This document shows positions 14,386 to 44,310 of a stretch of 62,135 nucleotides of DNA, piece by piece. A program made the position numbers and the translations under genes. The stretch's first letter is position 1; every line of letters begins with the position of its first letter. The notes beneath the pieces were generated by a model. It saw nothing but the letters and a program-made list of their open reading frames with translations, had not been told where the DNA came from and made no database searches. The stretch is from the sequence record DRR723986_4010; one strand, 5' to 3'.

Positions 14386-17300
14386 ACGGGATCGTCGCCT
14401 GGTTCGCCCGCAACGCGGTTGCCGCAAACCTTCTCATGATCGTCTGCTTCGTCGGGGGCATCTTCGGATATACCGCGATGGAACGGGAAATGTTCCCGAT
14501 TGGCACATTCAACGGCGCTACCGTGTCGATGTCCTGGCCGGGCGCGTCACCGCAGGACGTTGAGGAACAGATCGTGACACGGATCGAAGAAGCCGTGGCT
14601 GATCTGGATGGTATCAAACGCATCACGTCCACAGCGGCCGAAGGATCCGGCTGGGTCAATATCGAAGGCCAGAACGACATCGACATGATGGAGTTCCTGG
14701 ACGAAGTGAAACTTCGTGTCGATCAGATCAACAACCTGCCGCAGGCGGCGTTCCAACCTCAGGTTCGGCGCTGGGAACAGCGCGGACAATTCATGGGTCT
14801 GGCCATCCATGGCAAGGTCGACGGACGGGAACTGAAGCGTCTGGGAGACCGCGTTCGGGATGACATTGCCCAGCTGCCCGGCGGTGAACTTGCCGAACTG
14901 CAGGGAACGCTGGACGAACAGGTGAACATTGAAGTCACCGAGGAATCCCTGCGCCGGTTCGGCCTCAGCTTCGCCGATGTGGCCAATGCCATCCGGCAGT
15001 CATCCCTGAACTCATCTGGCGGCCGCATCGAGTCCTCTACCGGAGACGTCGCCATCACGGCCCGGCAGCTGGCCGACACGGAAGACCAGTTCAATCGAAT
15101 CATCATCCGGCAGACGACGGCGGAAGGCACCGTTCGGGTCGAAGACGTTGCCAATGTCATCGACGGGTTCGTGTCGGATAAGTTCAGCGCGCTTTATGGC
15201 GGTGAACCGACAGCCTTCGTCATGATTCCCGCCCCGGACAAGATGGATGTTGTCAAATACACTGAAGGCTTCCGGAACTATGTGGAACGGGCCAATGATC
15301 CCAGAAACGGAATCCTGCCCCAGGGAGTGAAGATCGACATCCTTTGGGACGATTCCGAAGCGTTCAACGACCGCATGAACCTGATCATGTCGTCTGCCCT
15401 GCAGGGCGCGGCGCTGGTGCTGATCGTCCTCCTGCTGTTCCTTCGTCCGATGGTGGCCTTCTGGGTGACAATCGGCATCATGACCGCATTCGCCGGCGGC
15501 ATCCTGATCCTGCCTTATCTAGGTGTGTCCTGGAACGTCCTGTCGACCTTTGCTGTGCTGCTGGTGATCGGAGTGATCGTGGATGACGCGATTGTGGTGG
15601 GTGAGAACATCCACAAGGAAGTCGAAAGCGGCCGGCGTGAAGGGCTGGACGCTGCGATTGTCGGTACCCAGCTGGTGATGAAACCGATCATCTTCGGTGT
15701 TCTCACAACAATTATTGCCTTCCTTCCGTGGGCTTTCCTCAGCGGACCGGAGCGCCAGTTCACTCAGCAGATCACATTTGTGGTTGTCGCGGCACTGGCC
15801 TTCTCGATCATTGAGTGCATGCTGATCCTGCCGGCACACCTGGCCCACATGAAAAAGCAGAGCTTTGACGGCCCAAGCGGTGCGCTCATGCGTATGCAAC
15901 GCCGGATCGCTGACAGCCTGCTATGGTTTGCCAACAACATCTACAAACCCGCGCTCGAGTTTGCGCTGAAGTTCCGCTACGCGACGACCGCCCTCTTCTT
16001 CTGCCTCTTCTACCTGGCCTTCAGCCTGTCCAGCATGAAAATTGTGCCGTTCAAGTTCATGCCGGAGATCGAAGCGGACCTGATCCAGGTGCAGATCGAA
16101 ATGCCCGATGGCACGCCTTACGAACGTCTGATTCAGGTCCGCGACCAGCTGCAGGCTGGGATCGAAGTCAGCGAGCAACAGACAAAAGACGAGCATCCTG
16201 AAATCGAGGACGGATTGATCCGAGACGCGTCAGTGATCGCCTACGGCACCAATGTTCGCGCGTTTGTCGGCCTCGCACCCCCGGAGGACCGCCCGAACAC
16301 AATCCGTTCGAAAGACCTCGCGGAATTGCTGCGCGAGAATGTCGGCGAAATTCAGGATGCTGAAGAGATCAATTTCGCCTTCACGTTCAATGACAATGAC
16401 ACAGGCGTCCGGTTCGCCCTCAGCAATGAGAATCTCGACCGCCTGCGCGAAGCAGCCGAAATGGTGAAGGTGCAACTGGCGACATATTCCAACGCCTATG
16501 ACGTGGGGGACAACCTGTCCTCCGCCGCCGAGGAGATCCGCATCAGCATGAAGCCGGGAGCCGAGACGCTCGGCGTTACGTTGGCCGACGTCTCCCGCCA
16601 GCTGCGCCAGGCCTATTATGGCGAGGAAGTCCAGCGCCTGCCCCGCGAAGGGGAAGATGTGCGCGTGATGGTGCGCCTTCCTGAATCGGCACGTGAAAAC
16701 CTGGACAGCCTGAATTCTCTCCGTGTACGCACGGTGGATGGTCGCGAAATTCCGGTAACGCAGGTCGCCGACTTCTCCTACGCCCCCGGCATCAACCGCA
16801 TTCAGCGGCGCGACCGGATGCGCTCGGTCTATGTCTTCGCCGAAGTGAAGGGCGAAGGCGGCCGCGGAGAAATCATGGCGGACATGGAAGCAAACTTCTG
16901 GCCGGAATTCCAGAAGCAGTTCCCGGATGTGAAACGCGGCGAAGCGGGCGGCTTCGAGGAAGAAAGCCAGTTCATGAGCGAAATCGGCCGGCTGACCCTG
17001 ATGGCCATCGGTGCCATGTACATCCTGCTGGCAATTGCCTTCCGGTCCTATGCGCAGCCTGTGCTGCTGATGATGGCCCTGCCCTTTGCCTATGCCGGTG
17101 CCCTGTTCGGCCTCTGGTTCTTTGACACGCCGATGGCACTGTTCTCCTTCTTCGGGATCGCTGCGGCCGCGGGGGTCGTCATCAACGACAACCTTGTGTT
17201 GATCGACTATGTCAACAAACGCCGGGACGAAGGAGCGGGCGCCGTTCAGGCGCTGGTCGACGCCGGCGTGTCGCGCTTCCGCCCGATCCTGCTGACGTCG

Positions 17301-40489: not shown

Positions 40490-41914
40490 TCAGATATGCG
40501 GTGTCTTGGCCCAGTAGTGCGGCGTGCGCACAAGGCTCCACAGGGCACGCATCATGGCGAGGGACTGCAGGGGCCAGTAAAGCGGCAAGGTCAGGATGTC
40601 GCCAACGCGCTGCCAGCTCCAGCGGCCTGGGGCCAGGCTGGCCGACAGGGCACCGGTGAAAAGCGACAGGCCGAGGGCGCTGAGCCCGAACGTGCCGAGG
40701 GATACGTCTGGAAACAGAAGGCAAGTGAAGCACCACAGGGCCCAAGGGCCATGCACTATCGCAGACAGGATCGCCGCGCCAAGCGTCATCTGGACGGAGA
40801 AGAAATCGACCGGCCTCAGGCCGCGAATTTCGGTTCGCCCGCGCATCAGCACGAGCCAGGTCTGCATATAGCCTTTCAGCCAGCGTGACCGCTGAGCCCG
40901 CCATACGCTTCCCGTCTCGGGCGGCGCCTCGAGTGTCGGAGAGCGGATTGCGCCGACCCGGTGGCCGAGCCGCGCGAGGCGCAGGCCAAGGTCTGCATCC
41001 TCAGTCACGTTCCAAGCATCCCATCCGCCCGCAGCGACCAGTGACGTGCGGCGGAAGTGATTGCTGGTCCCGCCGAGCGCCACAGGCAAGCCGAGCCAGG
41101 CCAGCGCCGGCACCAGAAGGCTGAACTGGATCGCATATTCCAGCGCCCATTGCCGCGCGATCCAGCTGCCTTTCGCCGGCGTGCCCACCAGTGGCGCCTG
41201 CACGCAGGCAAGCTCGGTGTTCTGGGCATTGAATGCACGAACCGCCGCCTTCAGCTGGCCCGGGTGGGGACGGTCTTCGGCATCATAGACGACAACATAA
41301 GTTCCCCTCGCCCGGGCGAGGCCGTAATTGAGCGCGCGCGGCTTGGTCTGCGGCTGGCCCGCCGGAACCACCAGCAGCTCCGTACCCATCGGCCAGACCT
41401 GTGCGCGGACGGCCCTTTGCGTGCGCACGTCTGTCTCTTCCACCAGCAATTTGAGGTCGATCCTGTCCTTCGGATAGTCGAGCGCGGCCACGGCCCTTGC
41501 CAGCTGCGGCATGACGGCAATCTCGTTCTTCAACGCGATGAGGATTGTATAGACCGGCAACAAGGGGGTCGCGCCGCTATTGTCCGGCAGGTCCTCCTGG
41601 CTGAGCCGTGCCGCCACGGTCAACAGGAACAGACGGAAAAGGATGATCGCCACGAAGATTGGCGGGATGATCACGGCCGCCAAGAAGCCGGGCAGCTCCG
41701 GCATGAGCAGGGTGAGAACGCCACATATCTTCAGAAGGCGGATGGCAAAGACACGCTGGCCCCGGTTGAGAGTGTGGCGGGCGGACAGACCGGGCGCCTG
41801 GCGCTCAAGCTGGTGTGCGGCTTCAAGGGCGAGTCGGATATCGGGCCGCGGACAGCTCAGGGGCGCGCGCAAATGCGCGCGGCCAGTACCGCCGTTGAAC
41901 CCCTCGCCACCCAT
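40490..41914 (-). CDS. Membrane glycosyltransferase family 2
   Basis: TKPRALN, YDAED, TEDADLG and QRSRW motifs with flanking TM helices; start uncertain. Confidence 0.88.
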   Translation of the reverse strand: MGGEGFNGGTGRAHLRAPLSCPRPDIRLALEAAHQLERQAPGLSARHTLNRGQRVFAIRLLKICGVLTLLMPELPGFLAAVIIPPIFVAIILFRLFLLTVAARLSQEDLPDNSGATPLLPVYTILIALKNEIAVMPQLARAVAALDYPKDRIDLKLLVEETDVRTQRAVRAQVWPMGTELLVVPAGQPQTKPRALNYGLARARGTYVVVYDAEDRPHPGQLKAAVRAFNAQNTELACVQAPLVGTPAKGSWIARQWALEYAIQFSLLVPALAWLGLPVALGGTSNHFRRTSLVAAGGWDAWNVTEDADLGLRLARLGHRVGAIRSPTLEAPPETGSVWRAQRSRWLKGYMQTWLVLMRGRTEIRGLRPVDFFSVQMTLGAAILSAIVHGPWALWCFTCLLFPDVSLGTFGLSALGLSLFTGALSASLAPGRWSWQRVGDILTLPLYWPLQSLAMMRALWSLVRTPHYWAKTPHI

Positions 41915-42120
41915 AGCCTTATGAAGCCTTTGGTTAACACTGGCACCACAAATCACAGGTTGATTTTGTTACGATAACGAAACGTTTCTCCCCGAAAGAG
42001 AGAGGATTCCCCACAAAGAAGAGCCCGGCGTACGGCCGGAAGCGATACACAGAGATATTCACAGGCCGGAATCTCCCGTCGACTTTACCCATCCGAAAAC
42101 CCGTCTGAAATACAAGGGAC

Positions 42121-42154
42121 TTGCCAGACCTCCTCGGATGTTCTATTTTTGTTC
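42121..42154 (+). promoter_or_regulatory. Promoter with alphaproteobacterial LexA (SOS) box
   Basis: GTTC-N7-GTTC at 42140-42154 overlaps the -10 of TTGCCA-N17-TATTTT; ATG at 42156. Confidence 0.8.
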
Positions 42155-42155
42155 C

Positions 42156-43715
42156 ATGGGTAACGTCCATCTCATCTGGTTCCGTCGCGATCTGAGGGTG
42201 CACGATCATGCCGCCCTCGCTGCCGCTGTGGCCAGCGGTGCGCCGGTCTTGCCGCTCTATATATTCGAGCGGGGCGCATGGGCCCTGCCGGAGCATTCGC
42301 GCCGCCAGTTCGACTTCCTGATGGACTCCCTGACAGAGCTGGACGAAGCCCTGACCGGGCGCGGTGCCCGGCTGATCGTCCGCAAGGGCGATGCGCTGGA
42401 CATTCTGGCAGACCTGCACCGCCGGCACGGCATCGAAGCAATCCACATGTATGAGGAATCCGGCCTGCCCTGGATGCGGGCGCGGGACCGGGCCGTTCGC
42501 CGCTGGGCCGTGCAGGCCGGCATCTCGCTGCGCGAGCAATCGCAGCCCGGCGTGCTCCGCGGCCTCAAGGAACACGATGACTGGGCGGCCCGCTGGGCGG
42601 AAACGCTGAACGCGCCCCGCATCAAGGCGCCGGACACGATCCGCGCGGCGACACAGGCTGCGGGCCCATGGCCTATCGCGGAAGACTTCTGCCTCGGCCC
42701 CGATGACTGCGCCGGCCGCCAGAAAGGCGGACGCACAGCCGGGGTGGAATTGCTGAGGAGCTTCCTCGCCGGACGCGGACGCCGCTACCGGCAGGATGTC
42801 GACAGGCCGGTCACGGCAGAGACAGCAGGCTCGCGCCTGTCGCCGCACCTCGCCTTCGGCACCGTCTCCGTCCGCGAAGCGTGGCAGGCCGCGGCCCGCG
42901 CCCGCGCGGCCTTCCTGCAGGACGGCGACACGACCTACGCCGCCTCGCTTTCCGAATTCCTCGAGCGGCTCGAATGGCGCGCCCGGTCGATCCAGGCCTT
43001 TGAAGACCGTCCCCTGCCCCAGACCGGCAGCGGCGAAGACCTCCGCCAGGAAGTTGCGGCAGACGATCCTCGTCTTGCTGCATGGATCGAAGGGCGGACC
43101 GGCTTCCCGCTGATCGATGCCAGCATGCGCGCGCTGCGCGAGACCGGCTGGCTCAATTTCCGCATGCGGGCCATGCTGATCGGGTTCGCCGCCTGCCAGC
43201 TCTGGATGGACTGGCGCCTGCCGGCAGAAAAGCTCGCAGCACTTTTCACCGATTTCGAACCGGGCATTCACTATCCGCAGGTCATCGCCCAGGCAGGCCT
43301 GCGCGGCCGGCGCCTGCCAACGGTTCACAACCCGGTCCGGCTCTCGCTGCAGCTCGACCCGGATGGCGCCTTTATCCGGCGCTGGGTGCCGGAACTTGCG
43401 GCCTTGCCTGACAATTATCTTCATGCCCCCTGGGAGGCACCGAAGGCAGAGCTCGCCCGGGCCGGCGTGATTTTCGGCCAGACTTATCCGATGCGCATGG
43501 TCGATCACGTCGCCGCCGCGCGTGAAGCCCGCGCGCGGATTGCCAGCGTGCGCCATCCCGGCCGGCCTGAACCGGTCCGGACGGCCCCGAAGCAGGCTGA
43601 TCTCCCGTTCCGGGCGCCGCGGCCAGGCAGACTCCGCCGGCCCGCCAGGGGCCCGGTCCAGCTGAGCTTCGATCTCGGTCAGCCGCCGTCTATGCCGGAA
43701 AGCCAGTCCGCCTAG
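42156..43715 (+). CDS. Cryptochrome/photolyase family FAD-binding protein
   Basis: WFRRDLRVHDH, SRLSPHLAFG, GRTGFPLIDASMR, GWLNFRMRAML and DPDGAFIRRWVPEL motifs. Confidence 0.9.
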   Translation: MGNVHLIWFRRDLRVHDHAALAAAVASGAPVLPLYIFERGAWALPEHSRRQFDFLMDSLTELDEALTGRGARLIVRKGDALDILADLHRRHGIEAIHMYEESGLPWMRARDRAVRRWAVQAGISLREQSQPGVLRGLKEHDDWAARWAETLNAPRIKAPDTIRAATQAAGPWPIAEDFCLGPDDCAGRQKGGRTAGVELLRSFLAGRGRRYRQDVDRPVTAETAGSRLSPHLAFGTVSVREAWQAAARARAAFLQDGDTTYAASLSEFLERLEWRARSIQAFEDRPLPQTGSGEDLRQEVAADDPRLAAWIEGRTGFPLIDASMRALRETGWLNFRMRAMLIGFAACQLWMDWRLPAEKLAALFTDFEPGIHYPQVIAQAGLRGRRLPTVHNPVRLSLQLDPDGAFIRRWVPELAALPDNYLHAPWEAPKAELARAGVIFGQTYPMRMVDHVAAAREARARIASVRHPGRPEPVRTAPKQADLPFRAPRPGRLRRPARGPVQLSFDLGQPPSMPESQSA

Positions 43716-43838
43716 ACAGTCCGCCTAGGCAGGCCTTCCAGCCTGCAGCGGACCCCTGCGCCCGCGAATCTTTCCGATTCTTGCCTATTCTGGCGCCGAC
43801 TCCCGGCAAAAAGCTTTCATGAACCGCAATTAATTGGT

Positions 43839-43866
43839 CTTGAAGGGCCCGTTTGGCGTACCATAT
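43839..43866 (+). promoter_or_regulatory. Sigma32-like promoter
   Basis: CTTGAA-N16-CCATAT. Confidence 0.4.
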
Positions 43867-43904
43867 CGATATTCAACAAGACGAAAGACCTTGAAATTCT
43901 TCAT

Positions 43905-43944
43905 AATTATTGTTTTTCGATAATTTTGTATTGATTTTCGATAA
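43905..43944. promoter_or_regulatory. Tandem operator (21-nt period)
   Basis: TATTGTTTTTCGATAA and TATTGATTTTCGATAA; the first copy is AATTATTGT-TTT-TCGATAATT. Confidence 0.65.
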
Positions 43945-44017
43945 GATCTGTCCTATCTTGAGGATGTCGGCGGCGGGATGGTCCCGCCAAGACAACAACC
44001 AAGAAGGACTTTCGAAT

Positions 44018-44200
44018 ATGACCCCCCGCGCCCGTCAGTATGACCACGAGATCGCCGCGACCGCCGCGCCGATGGCAAGCGCCATCCTCACCGGCAGCCC
44101 GACGCTGCTGTCCCGACCGGCAAACGATGTGGCCGACCGGGGCCGCCCGAACCTCCTGGTCCGCCGCCGCCGTCGTTCCCTCCGCCGGGACACGCACTAA
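44018..44200 (+). CDS. Putative 60-aa leader/small protein with Arg-rich C-terminus
   Basis: CAAGAAGGAC RBS context identical to that of the downstream gene; ends RRRRRSLRRDTH. Confidence 0.45.
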   Translation: MTPRARQYDHEIAATAAPMASAILTGSPTLLSRPANDVADRGRPNLLVRRRRRSLRRDTH

Positions 44201-44310
44201 GCCACCAGGACGGCGCTGCCCACAAAAGCCTTGCCCCCCTCTTGGCTCGCAGCGCCGTCCACCCTCCTCACAACCCTCAAGCCAGAACTCTCAAGAAGGA
44301 CCCTCTCGTC

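Follow-up and report, generated by a model that had tools for sequence, protein, structure and literature searches.

What is the function of a photolyase-fold protein whose gene begins directly behind a LexA box and whose disordered tail carries a peptide of the type that binds the sliding clamp? The question is raised by a gene in sequence record DRR723986_4010, a stretch of 62,135 nt that was analyzed as a whole and is called the window here. The coding sequence (42156–43715, + strand) runs from an ATG at 42156 to a stop codon at 43713–43715 and encodes 519 amino acids. A preliminary description, made from the letters of the window, had presented it as an SOS-controlled, probably leaderless photolyase/cryptochrome homolog. 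Its overall interpretation of the gene is supported, and we infer much the same from family assignment, structure prediction and comparison with related loci. The whole is best explained by an SOS-controlled, clamp-tethered protein of the NewCRY class that acts on or senses DNA lesions, a reading that we consider probable but well short of certain.

The protein has the domain architecture of a photolyase. Pfam places an N-terminal alpha/beta (antenna) domain, PF00875, at residues 6–129 (42171–42542, +; E = 1.8e-31) and a flavin adenine dinucleotide (FAD)-binding helical domain with an altered pocket, PF03441, at residues 268–462 (42957–43541, +). The AlphaFold2 model is a photolyase fold with a mean predicted local distance difference test (pLDDT) score of 91.4; it is confident to about residue 466, and the N-terminal domain is modeled with high confidence. 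The protein does not fall into any of the familiar classes. All NCBIfam photolyase/cryptochrome models (class I, 8-HDF type, DASH, plant cryptochrome and class II) score far below their cut-offs, as illustrated by two models for cyclobutane pyrimidine dimer (CPD) photolyases, NF007955 (163 vs 506) and TIGR03556 (137 vs 885), and by the DASH model TIGR02765 (143.7 vs 317). The best solved relative is the class III photolyase PhrA (4u63), with 166.7 bits and 28% identity. Among 1.84 billion representative proteins, 1,066 matched at E ≤ 1e-30; the best 150 of these 1,066 score at least 268 bits and are therefore nearer to the window protein than any solved class.

One relative links the protein to a named group. 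HNE_3082 of H. neptunium (536 aa, matching P0031) is 59% identical to the window protein and shares the label 'classA' with VC1392 (VcCry2) in Table S1 of Emmerich 2020 (PMC7736829). According to the accessible portion of that paper, VcCry2 is the representative of NewCRY, a class that makes up 8% of the superfamily, has members in both bacteria and haloarchaea that used to be annotated as CPD photolyases, and lacks E274 and N341. The window protein is not in the 2020 table, and its network grouping with VcCry2 is by proxy through HNE_3082. On this sequence relationship, the window protein is a member of the NewCRY class, which is named but uncharacterized, and no classical photolyase. The photolyase/cryptochrome homology claimed in the preliminary description thus stands on both Pfam domains, but the family name had been missed. 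NewPHL was also considered as the family of the window protein and was ruled out, as NewPHL has no N-terminal domain.

Does a protein of this class repair CPDs? We aligned E. coli Phr with 137 representatives clustered at 50% identity and verified the literature numbering. The lesion pocket is changed family-wide, with R for E274 in 127/137 sequences, F for N341 in 123/137, A for M345 in 124/137, H for N378 in 131/137 and M for W384 in 113/137; W382 is replaced by V, I, L or F, W306 falls in a gap in 135/137, and R226 is I, M or L. The window protein has R271, F335, A339, H372, V376 and A378 at E. coli positions E274, N341, M345, N378, W382 and W384, respectively; at the W384 position it carries A where the family has M, and W306 is a gap here too. 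Out of the CPD pocket (E274, W277, N341, M345 and W384), N378 and the triad W382–W359–W306, it keeps only W277 and W359. The residues that contact FAD are kept by the family (Y222 in 126/137, S235 in 128/137, S238 in 130/137, R344 and D372 each in 136/137, and W338 in 107/137 with Y in a further 22), and the window's own, Y211, S226, S229, R338, D366 and W332, are conserved. From these contact residues FAD binding is predicted. As E274, N341, M345 and W384, which hold the CPD, the asparagine at flavin N5 (N378) and two of the three triad tryptophans are replaced, standard CPD photoreversal is probably not performed. The suggestion that this is possibly not a classical light-repair enzyme is supported by replacements that extend across the family.

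These results bear directly on the simplest alternative, namely that the gene encodes an ordinary CPD photolyase and that its LexA-like repeat and its tail motif are coincidences. Homologs are publicly annotated as 'deoxyribodipyrimidine photo-lyase', and the bare box is not enriched in the window (2 vs 1.79 expected). However, every class model stays below its cut-off, and CPD contacts and the Trp triad are replaced. The nearest genome examined is G001, with an ortholog 95% identical to the window protein. It already contains an FeS-BCP and a canonical photolyase (L002, a paralog within the photolyase family), the latter retaining every canonical residue. The box and the tail motif, moreover, are conserved far beyond chance, as described below. 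We regard an ordinary photolyase as highly improbable.

How, then, is the gene controlled? A −35-like hexamer, TTGCCA (42121–42126, +), was found both by direct reading and by promoter scan. It is separated by a 17-nt spacer from a −10-like hexamer, TATTTT (42144–42149, +), which lies within the spacer of a putative LexA operator, GTTCTATTTTTGTTC, a direct repeat GTTC-N7-GTTC (42140–42154, +) that covers the −10 and leaves a single base between its end and the start codon. The claimed GTTC-N7-GTTC over the −10 of TTGCCA-N17-TATTTT is present exactly as read before. In a consensus promoter scan of 41900–44300, TTGCCA/TATTTT is the sole sigma-70-like promoter, where shuffled sequences give 0.4. 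The available text of PMC12700426 gives GTTCN7GTTC as the Caulobacter LexA consensus. By itself the repeat is not significant in number, and the weight of the copy at 42140–42154 comes from its placement and conservation rather than from the bare count. The other exact GTTC-N7-GTTC in the window (14905–14919, − strand; GTTCGTCCAGCGTTC) has a GC-rich spacer and is probably a chance occurrence. With the −10 sitting in the operator, LexA would repress the promoter, and damage, by way of RecA-stimulated LexA cleavage, would turn the gene on.

The same few bases also define the likely start of the message. The six bases that follow TATTTT, TGTTCC, put the start site at about the A of ATG 42156, and no purine-rich Shine–Dalgarno sequence was seen when the 20 nt before this ATG were read. 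Sequence and −10 spacing agree on both counts with the earlier prediction, a start on ATG 42156 and no Shine–Dalgarno sequence. Transcription would begin on the ATG or only a few bases from it, and with a −10 that ends 6 nt before it the mRNA of this NewCRY homolog is probably leaderless. An in-frame ATG at 42138 opens a longer open reading frame (ORF), whose start, MFYFCSM, is the operator read as protein. This upstream ATG occurs in only 4/8 Hyphomonas-clade sequences (the window and seven loci), whereas the ATG after the box occurs in 8/8; the translated box, FY.CSM, stands at the head of 47/120 homolog gene calls. The gene is present in RNA libraries: contigs from four metatranscriptome runs in two studies, all of environmental samples, cover 42164–43737. 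They begin at 42164–42196, 8–40 nt inside the ORF, and none extends upstream, although assembled contigs cannot define a 5' end. One of them, a 1,602-nt contig from a relative ~93% identical, covers the ORF in full and stops at 42164 without a loose end; all four runs have zero depth across 41900–42155. The contig starts hint, if only weakly, that the 5' end lies close to or at ATG 42156.

If the box is an operator, relatives should be informative. Searching 77 sequences for an exact match between −150 and +15 of the start, we found it in 13, which form exactly two clades. Eight are Hyphomonas-like (the window, L001 and L003–L008); in all eight the box is at the same place and abuts CC-ATG, with CTTGCC at the −35 distance, and comparison of the loci puts this CTTGCC at an equal distance in L001 and L003–L006. 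The remaining five belong to Paracoccaceae. In four of them (L054, L055, L063 and L072) the ATG lies within GTTCCATGAATGTTC, directly after the −10 GCTACATC, and the fifth (L036) has GAAC..GAAC at −33. In a tree built rapidly with IQ-TREE, without the fragments L024, L025, L027, L049 and L060 and the paralog L002, the distribution takes 2 changes, and 0/500 label shuffles gave as few. By this tree, the LexA box is acquired twice independently, once in the Hyphomonas-like and once in the Paracoccaceae clade. The box is constant while the divergent neighbor varies: the window and G001 have a GT2 glycosyltransferase there, L003 has an acyl-CoA dehydrogenase, and L004, L005 and L008 have an amine oxidase. 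Upstream of non-alphaproteobacterial members, neither CTG-N10-CAG nor GAAC-N4-GTTC had a conserved placement; loose CTG-N10-CAG gave scattered matches far upstream, alphaproteobacterial loci included. One box-bearing contig, L005, is labeled Candidatus Sulfopaludibacter (Acidobacteriota) and nests within the Hyphomonadaceae clade with a Hyphomonas-type gene and box, likely a binning error.

G001 allows the box to be viewed against a whole genome. It contains 109 boxes, vs 66 for a reversed-pattern control, and those with AT-rich spacers precede lexA, rmuC, ssb, an mmcB-like gene, a radical-SAM gene and imuA. The identification of an alphaproteobacterial LexA box is upheld by its constant place in the 8/8 clade sequences and by the type that it shares with the boxes at lexA, imuA and ssb of G001. 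Three photolyase-family genes are found in this genome, the canonical photolyase, the NewCRY ortholog and the FeS-BCP, and the box stands only at the NewCRY ortholog. Some G001 boxes abut or overlap start codons, at −23 to +3 nt, namely those of L120/L161 (imuA), L122 (radical SAM), L123 and L119 (mmcB-like). Operator-covered, possibly leaderless starts of SOS genes may be a habit of this lineage. One more box, at G001:C1:492672–492686 (L085, position 2731), lies ~100 nt upstream of dnaN, between that gene and a divergent ORF; its spacer is GC-rich, and it is likely due to chance.

The other distinctive part of the protein is its end. Residues 466–519 (43551–43712, +) form a basic, Arg/Pro-rich tail that is predicted to be disordered, with pLDDT of about 41–51 from residue 471 and <50 at residues 476–498 and 510–519 in the AlphaFold2 model. 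Sequence and conservation single out QLSFDL, residues 502–507 (43659–43676, +), as a candidate beta-clamp-binding hexapeptide, and it is followed by 12 residues, GQPPSMPESQSA. The tail had been described as ending in VQLSFDL; it is basic and disordered and contains the motif, but the motif stops 12 residues short of the C-terminus. All 53 orthologs compared share Q502, and L503, D506 and L507 are each kept in at least 90% of them, although the flanks vary in length and sequence. We defined a strict pattern as Q[LM]x[LF]x[LF] or Q[LM]xLF in the last 25 residues, and it is present in 109/118 full-length close homologs. In the 77 genome sequences, 50 have the strict, 63 a broad and 74 a loose pattern, the misses being L029, L047 and L052.

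The motif extends well beyond close relatives. Of 149 representatives at 50% identity, 125 passed a heuristic for a complete C-terminal region, and the strict pattern is found in 35 of these; 1000 shuffles of the tails gave 0.096 on average and never more than 2. It sits at the very C-terminus in 18 of the 35 sequences. The forms of the motif include QLSLF, QLDLF, QLTLF, QLELF, QLSLPL, QLSLDL, QLSFDF and QxxFDF, and its bearers include Acidimicrobiia, Marinobacter, Saliniradius, Pokkaliibacter, Psychrosphaera, Cyanobium and many alphaproteobacteria. PMC5397184, in the text available, reports QLSLF as a conserved clamp-binding motif and QLSLPL as the E. coli Hda peptide in the clamp cleft. The Hda-like protein of G001 has an N-terminal QMSFAF, and its DinB showed no obvious C-terminal motif for comparison. 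With Q502 invariant among 53 orthologs and distant members ending in QLSLF or QLSLPL, the earlier proposal of a clamp-type tail holds. QLSFDL is a hexapeptide of the QLxLxL / QL[SD]LF type, and its most likely docking site is the hydrophobic cleft of the DnaN clamp. A further conserved tail motif, [KR]HGSR[KR], often in the form IQxRHGSRRAGIPFRG, lies between the fold and the clamp-type motif and is found in 72/125 representatives, e.g. P0021–P0032.

Could the protein signal light instead? It would then be a light-signaling cryptochrome whose tail peptide binds a signaling partner or is a degradation or regulatory tag, and whose LexA box provides a second input. Such a role was the only one that the consulted part of PMC7736829 deemed feasible for NewCRY ('appears currently feasible'), given the missing E274 and N341. 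The induction of V. cholerae VC1392 by blue light (PMC5241685, as far as its text was available) would fit, and many NewCRY members are without a clamp-type motif. On the other hand, the extreme C-terminus of members from distant phyla carries canonical clamp forms (QLSLF, QLDLF and QLSLPL), putative LexA control arose on two occasions, and NewCRY genes cluster with DNA-repair photolyases rather than with regulators. In addition, the blue-light transcriptional response persists in a V. cholerae triple mutant of cry1, cry2 and phr, as stated in the accessible text of the same study (PMC5241685). Overall, we find light signaling quite unlikely as the role of the gene.

A different question is whether the protein of the window is still an enzyme, as parts of it depart from NewCRY itself. 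The family's WHCHFIQKLED...TSIE.RNLHPAYDG has become WRARSIQAFEDRPLPQT-GSGED in the window, with a four-residue deletion, and the family's QAQMQSATTGINTPRIYNPVKQS has become QVIAQAGLRGRRLPTVHNPVRLS in the window's sub-lineage. WRARSIQAFED and QVIAQAGLRG, singled out as diverged in the preliminary description, correspond to WHCHFIQKLED and QAQMQSATTG and are real departures from the family's own consensus. In the tail, the sub-lineage has lost [KR]HGSR[KR], and the family motif IQ.RHGSR..GIPFRG is reduced to DLPFR. These departures are confined to the closest relatives, graded from P0002 to P0012, and in the quick IQ-TREE tree a stem 0.63 long leads to the window and the G001 ortholog. The sub-lineage retains the box, DFEPGIHYPQ and QLSFDL.

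It is conceivable on these grounds that the sub-lineage has become a catalytically reduced, SOS-induced clamp binder that occupies the cleft, e.g. slowing replication or managing polymerase access, with the flavin domain left as a scaffold. The long stem branch of 0.63 and the loss of WHCHFIQKLED, QAQMQSATTGINTPRIYNPVKQS and RHGSR while QLSFDL and the box stay would agree with this. Selection speaks otherwise: the ratio of nonsynonymous to synonymous substitution rates (dN/dS) against the 95%-identical G001 ortholog is 0.106, and 0.09 over residues 1–465, indicating purifying selection across the folded part. The FAD contacts and DFEPGIHYPQ are also retained, and the fold is predicted with high confidence. 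We therefore see a mere cleft-occupying scaffold as unlikely and continue with a lesion-directed flavoprotein on the clamp.

Gene neighborhoods place NewCRY beside other photolyase-family genes. We took the largest flanking ORF on each side at 69 loci, after dropping eight of the 77 (L001, L006, L035, L048, L055, L066, L068 and L072). A NewPHL-type neighbor, ~400 aa with PF03441 only and a C-terminal W...GFF, occurs in 14/69 loci; W...GFF is the signature of the NewPHL Z-domain in the available text of PMC7736829. NewPHL lies upstream of NewCRY in L010, L011, L013, L016, L018 and L022 and downstream in L019, L040, L044, L053, L058, L061, L074 and L078. The gaps between the two genes are often 0–3 nt, which suggests translational coupling. 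The same source reports co-occurrence of NewCRY and NewPHL in 14% of cases, at the species level only. Other neighbors were FeS-BCP (PF04244) in 5/69 loci, a canonical photolyase in one and a Y-family polymerase in one. The polymerase gene (L075:3784–4500, PF00817) follows the NewCRY gene in a metagenome-assembled genome of an unclassified member of Pseudomonadota. In a single case, L058:3010–4338 on the − strand, the NewPHL neighbor itself ends in QVHLPL, a clamp-like hexapeptide. Among the photolyase-family genes of G001, no NewPHL was found.

Taken together, the LexA box and the clamp-type tail suggest work on damaged DNA at replication sites. In the mechanism that we propose, DNA damage would relieve LexA repression and yield a protein that keeps the two-domain photolyase fold and its FAD contacts and has probably abandoned CPD chemistry. 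The tail would tether this protein to clamps that remain where forks have stalled or at primer ends bordering single-strand gaps with a lesion, and the flavin domain would there act on or sense the lesion. A broader proposal can be made for the class: NewCRY as a clamp-tethered DNA-damage enzyme on DnaN and no light sensor, directed at lesions in single-stranded DNA or primer-template that are beyond canonical photolyases, often beside NewPHL and SOS-wired in some alphaproteobacteria. We offer this extension tentatively and think it rather doubtful as a whole.

Several observations weigh against an SOS-controlled, clamp-tethered, lesion-directed NewCRY protein. The box is absent from 64/77 genome loci. 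The recA gene of G001 has no exact box either; exact matching therefore undercounts real operators and is silent on affinity. The blue-light induction of VC1392 belongs here as well, and SOS control would therefore be a lineage-specific overlay. The RNA evidence comes from assembled metatranscriptome contigs, with their inability to define a 5' end. With Phe and Asp as its fourth and fifth residues and another 12 residues after it, QLSFDL is not the textbook terminal QL[SD]LF. Approximately 60–70% of distant representatives are without the motif (90/125 by the strict and 77/125 by the broad pattern) and end after a KHGSRR-type motif; the clamp tail is therefore not universal in NewCRY. Finally, the long stem, the lost pocket motifs and the lost RHGSR may reflect an enzymatic role that has changed or diminished.

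NewCRY is a large orphan branch of a well-studied family of repair enzymes and photoreceptors, and the sole published guess at its function is light signaling. The clamp-type tail, the two recruitments into the SOS response and the adjacency to NewPHL point to damaged DNA at replication sites instead. What is new here is that the clamp-type tail is widespread in NewCRY and that probable LexA control was acquired twice; the class itself had already been named, and its name turned up in one relevant paper. The searched text of PMC7736829 contains 'SOS', 'clamp' and 'operon' 0 times each, and in a search of the freely accessible literature we found no published clamp motif or SOS control for NewCRY or for photolyases of this fold; on SOS control, the search gave only the radical-SAM splB described below. 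Nor did we find in the literature a photolyase-fold flavoprotein among clamp-tethered SOS proteins. If the lesion-directed reading is true, a flavoprotein would join the bacterial sliding-clamp partners, and direct damage handling would be coupled to replication in a new way. Under the broader and rather doubtful proposal for the class, NewCRY would be the first replication-coupled, LexA-controlled member of the photolyase fold, and its R/F/A/H/M pocket would imply a new substrate or a new chemistry.

How does the window protein compare with known systems? The closest is NewCRY as represented by VcCry2. The two share the two-domain architecture and the missing E274 and N341, the ortholog HNE_3082 bears the 'classA' label of VC1392, and both co-occur with canonical and (6-4) photolyases. 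The window's sub-lineage differs in being further from the family consensus in pocket and tail. The best sequence and fold matches among solved proteins are A. tumefaciens PhrA (4u63; Foldseek E = 3.6e-30, template modeling score 0.77–0.83) and the plant cryptochromes. However, no more than 28% of residues are identical, neither the CPD pocket nor N378 nor W382/W306 is conserved, and a clamp-type tail is missing from those proteins.

NewPHL, described in the available text of PMC7736829 as a CPD photolyase specific for single-stranded DNA with inverted topology, is likewise a bacterial 'extra' member of the photolyase family, and its action on single-stranded DNA is consistent with NewCRY working at gaps or forks. 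In contrast to NewCRY, it has no N-terminal domain and keeps the CPD-repair residues. A second parallel is the SOS-regulated splB-like radical-SAM 'photolyase' of alpha- and betaproteobacteria (Sanchez-Alberola 2012, PMC3323433, in the part accessible). This too is a gene related to ultraviolet lesions behind an alphaproteobacterial LexA box, and the G001 copy has its box at the start codon; the fold, however, is an unrelated radical-SAM fold and the protein is no photolyase-family flavoprotein.

Another group also invites comparison. The polymerases Pol IV/DinB and Pol V/UmuC and the ImuA–ImuB–DnaE2 mutasome are clamp-tethered, SOS-regulated DNA-damage proteins. These and Hda differ from NewCRY in being polymerases or AAA+ regulators, yet they resemble it in a Q-L-x-L/F-x-L/F peptide on a flexible end, and imuA of G001 has the same type of LexA operator. 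The E. coli Hda peptide QLSLPL is present unaltered in several NewCRY tails.

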